Shown piece after piece: positions 59,692 through 63,509 of a DNA stretch of 64,000 nt; within the stretch, counting starts at the first letter, position 1, and each line of letters begins with the position of its first letter. The notes beneath the pieces were generated by a model. It made no database searches and was not told where the DNA came from. It saw nothing but the letters and a program-made list of their open reading frames with translations. Location of the stretch: contig NC_058133.1 in assembly GCF_016433145.1 (NCBI RefSeq), positions 35,214,492 to 35,278,491 on the forward strand, given 5' to 3'. Position numbers and translations under genes: made by a program. The DNA comes from Gracilinanus agilis. Its lineage: Eukaryota.

Positions 59692-59785
59692 CAATGTCCT
59701 GGAGTTCTCTGCCCTGCTTTTCCATGAGGTCGTCTATGTAGTTACTATGTGTGACTTCTTGCTTCTCCCTCTCTGTTTTCAGAAC
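59692..59785 (-). CDS. CFAP57: CFAP57 exon (94 nt)
   Basis: ttttgtttggatttcAG acceptor. Reads VLKTEREKQEVTHSNYIDDLMEKQGRELQDI+G, phase 0 to 1. Not in the ORF track. Confidence 0.94.
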
Positions 59786-59809
59786 CTGAAATCCAAACAA
59801 AATAAGTCT

Positions 59810-62030
59810 TTTGGTACTATTTCCTGTTTAAGAGTTCCTGGGAGGATGGATGAAGATCCCTGAAGCCAGGTGGGACTTCGGAGGGCAATTTCTCTTAAAG
59901 GACCATCCGGCCTTCCCCGGCATCCTTCCAGGGATAATCATGGAGGGAGGGTTCTGCTAGCCCTGTGACAATAACAACTGCTTCCTTTTCTAGGGTACAC
60001 TGATCCTCCCAACAACCCTGGGATGCAGGCATGATTGTTACCCCCATTTTATAGAGGAGGAAACTGAGGCAGGCAGAGGTGAACTGACTTGCCTAAGGAA
60101 AGCTACATAGCCAGGAAGTATCTGAGGCTAGACTGGAACTTGGATCTCCCTGATCTGTTGCAGAGTGCCCAGAAGAGGTCCAAGCATAGACTGGTGCTTC
60201 TTAAAGCCTTACTGATTGATTTCCTTCTCAAGCGCTTCAGTCCTTCAAGGATCTGTGACGCTCTGGTGTGGGTAGTCTCTCCCCCAGCACTGATGGCTAC
60301 ATCTCCGAAACAGTGTGTGGTCATTCAGAGTGGCCATTGCTGAGATAATGACTGTCCTGTAGCAGCTCTGGTGATGCTGACCCACAAGCCTTCCCAGGCT
60401 TAGAGAACCTACAGTTCCCTCCACCCTTCCTACCATGCTCTGGTCCTGAGGATTCTGAGGAGCGCTAGTAGCAGTTAACCTCCGCTCCCTCCAAAGTCCT
60501 TCATTGCCATGGACTTGTTCCTCATGAACACTGCTGGATTTGAGGCAGTGTGGCACAACGGGTGGACAAAGGAGTTGGTCCACGGGTGTCCATTTCACTG
60601 ATAGCTCTAAACATGGGCTTCCCATTCAGCGGTCACTTGAGGATGCCAGTTGCTCTCTTAATATCCACAGCCTCAGATTTCTCCCGGAAAGCCCTAGGCA
60701 CACTGTGTTTTGCTTAGAGAAGACAAAGATGTTAGTAAGAATTACTGTTGTCCGTGGGTTAAACCTGGCCTCTGGTTTTGAGCTCAGAGCCTTTACTGTC
60801 TTCTAGGACCCAGGAGAATTTTAGATGTATCACATCCAAATGACATTTTGCTAAAGTTGGAGGAAGTTTCTTTGAGATGTGGGAGCTGCTCAAAGTGCTC
60901 TCGAGTGGAGCTGTACCCCTTGGTGCCATGCACGTACATCCAGGGATTTCCACAACTCCCTCTGACTTGAAGGTCGTACTCATTATTACTCGGGAGTGAC
61001 GAGACTGGATTTATGGCGAGGAAGGACCGTAGTGGGCTGAAGCTGCCTCTGGGGGAGATGCCATACTATATATCAATATTGTTCTTGATGTTATTATATT
61101 GGTCATTTCCATGTAAACGTCAAATACTCTAACAGTCTTGATATGCCTGGCTGTAAAGCTGTGAATAGAAAAACGGTGTGATTATAAGCAAAGGCAGTAT
61201 AAAGGATGGGGTGGCAGCTCATTCAATAATTCCCAGATTGACAAAGAATTGTTCTTTATACTCCCGAGACTTTCTGGGACACCCTTTTTGCTCCTTCATC
61301 AGGATATTGTTTTCTCATGAATGTCGGTAATTTTTTCTAAGAATGCCTCCTGTCGGGTAATAGGGGAGGGGTTGCTGGTGGGCTCCTCTTCTGGCAATCA
61401 ATATAGGATGCCTTCCATCAGGTTTGCAGCAGGGACGAGGCTGGTAATGCTCCACGGGTGAGCCAATAAGTGATAGATCATCTTGGAATCTGTCCCTCAG
61501 TGGCTTGGCAGAGAAGCTCCAGTTTCAATCCTCCCAAGCCGTGGCTTCTCAGACCTCTGGTAGATGATTTCTGAGGGAGGCTGGATTTTTCACTTTTTGC
61601 TGTTCATTTCTTCATCAGTTTGCTTCTCATTCTGGCTTATGGACATGAAGAATGCCTGGCACATTCCCCACATTGTATTCCTCCAGTTCTTTTTTGTGAC
61701 CTTGAATCGTGTGGCCTCTACCTCCCAGGGTGGTGGCAAGGGTCAAATGAGATGCTGTTTGTAAAGACACCCCGTAAATGCTTTAAAAAAAAAAAGAATC
61801 TGCTACTACAGATACCAGAGGTGAGCTTCCAATGTCTTTGCCAAAGGGGGTTCCTGAGTTTTCCCAGGCTGATGGGTGTTTGAGGCTTGTCCTTAGGAGT
61901 ATTTCTAAAGAGCTCCTCCTTCTTCCCTAGGGTCCTTGCCTCGGCAACACCATGTGAGGTCCTGAGATAGTCAAACACTCTCCATCAGACATTGTGGGAG
62001 AAGGTACTGCAACAGCTATATTCCATGATC
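59810..62030 (-). mobile_element. Fossil R4/Dong-clade non-LTR retrotransposon (Mam_R4-like), interrupted by SINEs
   Basis: Manual minus-strand translation gives ENNILMKEQKGCPRKSREYKEQ, GI..RGSFSPL.SFLAINPVS, MYVHG (decayed YVDD) and KMSFGCDTSKIL. The core 60480-61460 is well supported; the ends are tentative. Confidence 0.75.
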
Positions 62031-62039
62031 CCCTACCCT

Positions 62040-62260
62040 TAGGTAGCAAAGTGGACAGAATGTGGAGCCTGGAGTTAGGAAGATCCAAGTTCAAATCTGA
62101 CCTCACACACTAGCTTTATGACCCATGGAAAGTCACTTCACCTCTGTATGCCTTAGTTTCCTCAGCTGTAAAATGGAAATAACACTACCTACACCTCTCA
62201 GGGTTGTTGTGATGATCAAATTTGTAAAATGCCTGATGCACAGTAGGTGTCTGTGAATGT
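62040..62260 (+). mobile_element. MIR SINE
   Basis: ggagttaggaagatccaagttcaaatc...cagtttcctcagctgtaaaatgg. Confidence 0.85.
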
Positions 62261-63353
62261 TTATTTCCCTCTCTTTACTACCACCCCTCCGAATTCTGCA
62301 CTTAAATGTTACCAGAAAGGAGTACTTTCATAGACTTGAAAGAACGGATAGTGACAGTCCTATTGGAAACTGCAAATCCCTATTATAAACAGTTGGCTTT
62401 TCTTTGCAGGATCTTGGCTCCTGGGGGCTGAGAAGCAATCACTCAGTGGGTTACTCTCAAAGCTGTCCTGCTTGTCTGGGATGCCTTCAGTTCCCTTTGA
62501 TGCATTTTGATGACTGACTCTTCCCTCTTTTTTGGGGGAACCCTGAAAAGTGAAATCTTTGCAATAAGTATGCAGAGTCAAGCAAAAGAAATTCCCATTT
62601 CCCATCCTTTCCGTGTCTGAAATGTCGTTCTGGCTTTTGACAACTCTATTTTGGTGGTCAGTCTATTAGCTGAAATGATGCCATTAGACTAAAAAAAAAA
62701 TATTTTTGGAAATTTTTCTCTGAAATAGTTCAATTCACTGAAGAACTTGAAAGATTAAATTGAATAAAATGGAATAATAATGAAATGAAATGGAAATCAC
62801 CTCCTCCTTCCCACAGGATGACTCCACTGGAGTAATCAAGTGGACTGATGAGTCCTTGCTCAGAGCTGTCATATTCCCATTAGTCCCAGCCACACTGCTC
62901 GTTTGCCTCCTCTCCTTCCCAGCTTACTGTCAATCTGTCCCACTTGCCCACTGGCCCTCTTCCCCCCATGCTAGTCCCTTCTCCCCCACTTTCCACCTCT
63001 CTGTACGTGTCGTAAAGCTCCTTGAGGGAAGGGACCATCTTGTTTTTATATCTTCAGCGATTGGCATGGCTTAGCCTGGCATGTAGTAAGTGATGAACAA
63101 ATGGCTGTCTGTATTTGCCACGTGTTCCAGGGCTCTCAATGCCCTTGTGTGTTCAGATTTCAGCCACTCCCTTACTCCCGCCCATGTTTCATCTCAGCTG
63201 GGTCTAGGATTGAAGGGATTTTTAGTAATGAGGATCACCAGCCTCCCTTCCTGCCCAGGTGGGGTGTGTGCGTCATCACCACAGATGGACGGCTACACGG
63301 ATGGATGGAGGCTGGGATGACTTTTCTGGGAGCTCCCTCGAGCACAGACATAC

Positions 63354-63509
63354 CTGGTTCTTTGTCTTCAGAGACTCCATCTCCTGGACAAACTTTTCTG
63401 TCAGCTCCTTGATCTTCTCTGTGTAATTCATATCCTTTAGTCGTAGCTGGTACTCATTTTCCATCTTTAGCTCCTCCACACGAGTCTTCAGTTCCAGCAT
63501 GATCTGAGC
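63354..63509 (-). CDS. CFAP57: CFAP57 exon (156 nt), start of the coiled-coil region
   Basis: ctctacAG|GCT...CAG|GTatgt. Reads [52 protein letters not shown]. Confidence 0.97.

Follow-up and report, generated by a model that had tools for sequence, protein, structure and literature searches.

A decayed, fragmented copy of a probable R4/Dong-type retrotransposon family in a CFAP57 intron of Gracilinanus agilis

The window analysed here (the whole stretch of 64,000 nucleotides from Gracilinanus agilis) includes one intron of CFAP57 that contains, in the sense of the gene, a decayed and fragmented copy of an old, high-copy repeat family with R4/Dong architecture. We consider this reading, with the likely lack of function of the copy, highly probable. 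The fossil is likely an R4/Dong-type (restriction-like endonuclease, RLE) non-LTR retrotransposon, as the preliminary description of the window had suggested, and this is supported by the architecture of the family, its TAA-rich flanks and its insect RLE-type relatives. The copy belongs to the family, consists of six collinear pieces, is interrupted by an inserted SINE and has lost the catalytic aspartates. It is an ordinary member of the family, one weak copy among many better-preserved ones.

The host intron and the pieces of the element

The host intron (63353-59786, minus strand) was bounded by matches of the flanking exons to consecutive residues of CFAP57. The exon at 63509-63354 matched residues 697/698-748/749 of CFAP57 PDB chains (E 9e-24), and the exon at 59785-59692 matched residues 750-780 of the solved CFAP57 structures (E 2e-5). 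The features of the intron and its borders are listed here, with positions in the ~3920-bp element given where they apply.

63354..63509, minus strand: CFAP57 exon that precedes the intron (52 codons, with its donor at 63353; splice sites read from the sequence)
63152..63215, minus strand: fossil piece 1, N-terminal coding region (element ~641-704; 5' family profile E 5e-6)
62629..62712, minus strand: fossil piece 2 (element ~853-938; E 7e-8; region score 42 against a null maximum of 21)
62039..62228, no strand assigned: high-copy SINE between pieces 2 and 3 (up to 78 overlapping matches at unrelated genome loci)
61544..62007, minus strand: fossil piece 3, split by an 80-bp insertion (element ~968-1428; E 3e-23)
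61712..61780, no strand assigned: SINE fragment inside piece 3 (33 other genome matches)
61459..61533, minus strand: fossil piece 4 (element ~1607-1680; 48/74 identical; score 33 against a null maximum of 24 in 200 shuffles)
60600..61447, minus strand: fossil piece 5, decayed reverse transcriptase (element ~1720-2702; E 1e-114; 608/845 identical; 67 bits)
60793..61065, minus strand: stop-free stretch of 90 codons, apparently neutral and not a gene (the YMDD of the family reads YVHG)
60588..60598, minus strand: last detectable element bases, KW motif (element ~2745-2755; 10/11 match after a 42-nt deletion)
60168..60587, no strand assigned: no family similarity and no other genome match
60000..60167, no strand assigned: high-copy SINE outside the detectable element (genome matches)
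59692..59785, minus strand: next CFAP57 exon (acceptor AG at 59787-59786)

All pieces are collinear and on the CFAP57 strand, spanning element positions ~641-2755, and the matched DNA amounts to ~1.5 kb of the ~3.9 kb element, spread over 2.6 kb. Piece 5 was matched by a DNA profile that included 42 genome copies and excluded that of the window, and its 608 identical positions correspond to 72% identity to the family. A frameshift-aware protein profile was aligned with the decayed reverse transcriptase (RT) at 61421-60600 with 67 bits, compared with a maximum of 20 in 40 shuffles, which places the RT fossil beyond chance; the piece carries frameshifts, stops and many deletions of 7-25 bp. Piece 1 scored 49-52, compared with null maxima of 20-24 in 40 shuffles. 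A search for inverted pieces on the plus strand gave no match below E 3.6 to the family profiles, and the scores for extra pieces in the gaps 63216-63353, 62713-63151 and 62230-62628 were within the null.

The peptide strings quoted in the preliminary description were all recovered on the minus strand where it had placed them. It had drawn a continuous element of 2.2 kb ending at 59810; the similarity stops at ~60588, and in the other direction the element reaches 62007 and continues at 62712-62629 and 63215-63152. The SINEs at 62039..62228, 61712..61780 and 60000..60167 are taken by us to be of MIR type, on the basis of a motif and not of a repeat library. Since the profile columns on either side of the SINE at 61712-61780 are adjacent, this SINE is younger than the element. 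The view that such SINEs interrupt the element and postdate it thus holds for at least this one, whereas the one at 60000-60167 falls outside the part of the element that can be detected.

Identity of the window copy to the family majority was 72.7%, with a range of 70.8-77.7% (median 74.7%) in the 42 others. The implied equilibrium GC of 60600-61447 was 0.56, the highest among 43 copies (others 0.24-0.47); substitutions in this segment are biased to G/C and deletions far outnumber insertions, as expected of a high-recombination GC-rich region. Owing to the GC shift, BLAST-like searches likely see the copy poorly. Compared with the family, bases lost from the window at 61336-61340 and at 60598 are still present in a related organism, so some of the deletions are recent and lineage-specific. 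The ~420 bp at 60168-60587 are common to the window and the related organism with ~95% identity, and a genome search with 60165-60600 returned itself as the sole match.

The 3' boundary was first placed at 60600 by anchored tests and moved to ~60588 after comparison with the related organism, which has 33 bases at ~60598 where the window has one. The first 14 of these are the next bases of the family, and the KW motif after them matches the family at 10/11 positions, so the proposed KWT, located at 60595, is likely a real remnant. The remaining 3' motifs of the preliminary description (HCLKSS, GETTH and RPD) did not stand. It is improbable that the element runs to ~59810 with its 3' third diverged beyond detection and with these three as true remnants, even though they are in the right order at roughly plausible spacing, the copy is deletion-rich and GC-shifted, and the KWT, likely real, was missed by the first anchored tests. 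None of five tests raised the family score of 60587-59786 above the null; the methods applied to the proposed 3' continuation included nhmmer as well as local, anchored, forward and protein-level scoring. Forward scores past the KW motif were reached by 45/60, 12/60 and 12/60 shuffles at three divergence levels, and the protein-level score was 12.8, below the null mean of 14.7. On the diagonals of HCLKSS, GETTH and RPD the flank identity was 18/72, 13/72 and 16/72, respectively (18-25%), as against 54/72 and 44/72 for two control motifs and 72% in the adjoining core. Moreover, RPD and ETx(x)H are common by chance (8% and 12% of shuffles, respectively), GETTH is without the knuckle cysteines, and the RPD at 59913-59905, thought to end ~25 bp before the splice acceptor, lies ~120 bp from the acceptor at 59786. 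We therefore keep the boundary at ~60588, beyond which no match was found and neither knuckle nor endonuclease was detected in the window copy. Because the window copy matches the family at E 1e-114, the missing knuckle and endonuclease reflect loss and not a different family.

The family in the genome and its relatives

The genome searched for family copies comprises 3.7 Gb and has seven very large contigs. A DNA search of the genome found 12 other loci; one weevil protein gave at least 49 matches (best E 2e-56; 41 scored of 25,772 candidates), and the 5' part gave at least 42 (40 scored of 209 candidates). With the same protein scoring, the window copy received 67 and the 42 other copies 52-335 (median ~181), 40 of them above the window copy and 2 below; 30 of the 42 had been chosen as best protein matches and 12 by DNA likeness to the window copy, and among these 12 there are still 10 that outscore it. 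The belief that so long and readable a copy is uncommon, and would be of special value for a consensus or for dating, was not supported, since some of the other copies are nearly full-length and better-preserved ones exist in the same genome. Two loci, L053/L118 (G000:C7:35447244-35454398) and L046/L123 (G000:C4:232796967-232804274), hold decayed, nearly whole elements of ~3.9 kb and would serve annotation much better than the window copy does. For other mammals, Table 2 of PMC9631953 gives 12,719 Dong-R4 matches (4.9 Mb) in antechinus, and Table 1 of PMC3428314 gives 550 Dong-R4 elements (120 kb) in human.

Several arrangements were recorded among the other loci. At L108 (repeat-trimmed positions 7-870 and 1029-2467) the 3' end of one copy is directly followed by the 5' part of a second, head to tail, an arrangement that would be expected were the TAA tail itself a target. 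The 3'-end profile is also matched by L123 and L103, and L048 and L063 have a second, partly repeated piece of the 3' region of the element downstream.

Standard scans with the frames of the window itself did not pick up the peptide strings. Five frames matched no Pfam family and gave PDB matches at chance level only, and a word-based homologue search with a window frame scored 0/154 candidates. Exhaustive phmmer with the frame 61338-60775 against 1.84 billion proteins returned 16 matches with E up to 0.001. RVT_1 is present in 12 of the 15 that were scanned, and the other 3 are repeat proteins of the cadherin or fn3 type; the two best E-values do not belong to RT matches, one being a cadherin-repeat protein and the other a protein too long to scan. 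The full-length RT matches are proteins of 1100-1200 residues with RT, CCHC knuckle and RLE motifs. In the reverse direction, 95 of the 146 collected relatives were used as tblastn queries; they matched 61421-60597 (best E 5e-13), and the sole match elsewhere was an isolated one at E 0.034. The ESM Atlas returned RVT_1 clusters without a clade name, some of which list Chordata as commonest, with few members.

Translated, the family majority extends over 821 codons, interrupted by 3 stops and 2 frameshifts. It has YMDD and, in this order, a C-x2-C-x7-H-x4-C knuckle, RHD, PD, D-x-x-x-P and K-x-x-K-Y. A C-terminal CCHC knuckle and a restriction-like endonuclease motif (PD...D...K) are thus present at the family level. 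The 5' part of the family continues the same protein profile and aligns with insect N-termini at up to 43%; for a member of the R4/Dong clade, a divergent SANT/Myb-like domain and no zinc fingers would be expected at the N-terminus. Over 825 residues the majority is 58% identical to Sitophilus oryzae proteins and one further protein; identity to a mid-ranking relative is 45%, and that to the L1-like RTs of the same genome (22 of 30 loci translated, one group) is ~24%. The alignment made from 18 unmended RT segments reached 281 bits on the weevil protein, compared with 61 bits on R2 structures. In a tree of 39 rows (2 left out), the family falls in a clade supported at 100/98 with weevil, medfly and further elements and nests among insect RLE-type proteins, none labelled R4 or Dong.

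Two records in the collected set deserve mention. In the tree, P0127 falls among the insect elements, although this R4/Dong-like protein is recorded for Streptomyces narbonensis; the record is probably contaminated. P0091, likewise R4/Dong-like, has an additional domain at its N-terminus (PF02338 in precomputed annotation), which we take to be an OTU-like protease.

TAA-type trimers on the sense strand were enriched at the family junctions, with 6.5 vs 2.6 in controls at the 3' end (18 rows, p 2e-5); at the 5' end the values were 4.5 vs 2.4 (15 rows, p 0.035). At both ends the windows were chosen after viewing the alignments and the rows include duplicates. A cruder TAA test at the 3' end was weak (1/15 vs 3/60). 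The window copy gave no match to the end profiles and has lost both junctions, so TAA insertion is a family-level result.

Taken by its architecture, TAA flanks and insect neighbours, the family likely belongs to R4/Dong. From comparisons that covered insect RLE-type proteins, R2 structures and the L1-like RTs of the genome, we consider a LINE of another clade (L1, RTE, L2, CR1, or another RLE clade such as R2) very improbable in view of the C-terminal knuckle with the RLE motif, the 58% identity to an RLE-type insect protein as against ~24% to L1-like RTs, the much lower score on R2 than on the weevil protein, and the nesting within the insect set. For L1, which had been named as an alternative, the L1-like RTs also gave no tblastn match below E 0.5 to the region.

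The 90-codon stretch

The stop-free stretch of 90 codons at 61065-60793 exists as described. Two substitutions separate the codons at 60936 from YVDD, as had been stated, and three separate them from the YMDD of the family. Differences at codon positions 1, 2 and 3 of the stretch number 20, 29 and 26, respectively, and dN/dS is 0.56, while the corresponding stretch of 32 other copies has a median of 0.49; values below 1 in all copies are likely a counting artefact, and the informative comparison is that between copies. An equally long open frame occurs in 16/42 other copies and in 22% of 1000 shuffles. In the related organism, which is ~91% identical, the stretch has a 2-bp and a 1-bp deletion and a 171-bp skip. 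Its contig covers 60663-60990 with 27 substitutions and skips 60990-61162, and these frameshifts rest on one contig in one run.

The stretch is thus under no coding constraint, in a copy that likely evolves without function. Exaptation of the RT-derived stretch as a coding or otherwise selected element is extremely unlikely, and for a coding function it is largely refuted. In its favour, the copy is common to the window and the related organism, and human Dong-R4 fragments have a high share of constrained bases (Table 1 of PMC3428314 gives 25,967 exapted bases against 120,346 in the genome). On the other side, YMDD has become YVHG, substitutions fall evenly on the three codon positions, runs of 90 open codons are common and the relative has frameshifts and a deletion here.

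Relation to known elements and history of the family

PMC7998251 describes Dong of Bombyx mori, together with Dong-like members of the R4 clade, as having RT and RLE and as inserting in (TAA)n, and places an element of Sitophilus oryzae among the R4/Dong relatives. The present family resembles Dong in that a single ORF encodes RT and RLE, the flanks are rich in TAA when read on the sense strand and neighbouring copies can lie head to tail (L108), and from RT, RLE and TAA-rich flanks it follows that the family works like Dong. Its best named matches are the S. oryzae proteins, which may or may not be the weevil element of that paper. Unlike Dong, the family is long dead, with copies ~25% from their majority, and the window copy is without knuckle, endonuclease and both junctions. 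R2 proteins (PDB 9nl2, 9nl3, 9dou and 8gh6), which are RLE-type and use target-primed reverse transcription, are the nearest solved structures, yet R2 is far more distant from the family (61 vs 281 bits); according to PMC7998251, its target is rDNA and it bears zinc fingers and Myb at the N-terminus.

Among vertebrates, Rex6 of fish and R4 of Anolis are named as members of the R4 clade in PMC4350176 and PMC5389967; the Anolis R4 is polymorphic in populations, and both are putative relatives of the present family. In passages of PMC9004415 and PMC5753468, Mam_R4 (Dong-R4 of RepeatMasker) and X4_LINE (R4 clade of Repbase) represent the sole RLE-type LINE relic annotated in human before 2022. The present family is probably the same as Mam_R4/X4_LINE. 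Human fragments of Mam_R4 are few and short, while some copies in this genome are nearly full length.

The active ancestor would have been ~3.9 kb long with one ORF of ~1200 codons. Judging from the domains of the family and established R2/R4 biology, its C-terminal restriction-like endonuclease would have nicked a TAA-rich site, and its RNA would have been copied at the nick by target-primed reverse transcription. Target-primed reverse transcription begins at the 3' end, so the 3' third that the window copy now lacks (knuckle, endonuclease and tail) would once have been there; it was likely lost later by deletion, extreme divergence being the less likely alternative. Neutral decay would then have followed, with deletions, SINE insertions and loss of both ends, and the copy may be hard to see because deletions and A/T-to-G/C changes built up in the GC-rich region that holds it.

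It is conceivable, though rather unlikely, that the mammalian Dong-R4 entered early mammals horizontally from an arthropod as a TAA-targeting Dong-like element. The 58% identity over 825 residues to an element of the living rice weevil, closer than most insect relatives tested, and the nesting of the family inside insect elements point in this direction. Several points speak against such a transfer: the sequences compared had been collected for their similarity to the weevil protein, with no named element from a vertebrate among them; PMC9004415 reports that one human Dong-R4 fossil predates the amniote split; and Atlas clusters near these proteins include chordate members.

In the open-access literature, no paper with a near-full-length mammalian model or with the closeness to the weevil element was found. 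The window copy itself matters little, and the family-level results are modestly useful. The genome holds enough copies to model a nearly full-length mammalian R4/Dong element of ~3.9 kb with both ends; the junctions of the family keep a TAA footprint, and, with R4 sequences of lizard and fish included in the comparison, its closeness to the weevil element makes vertical versus horizontal origin testable.
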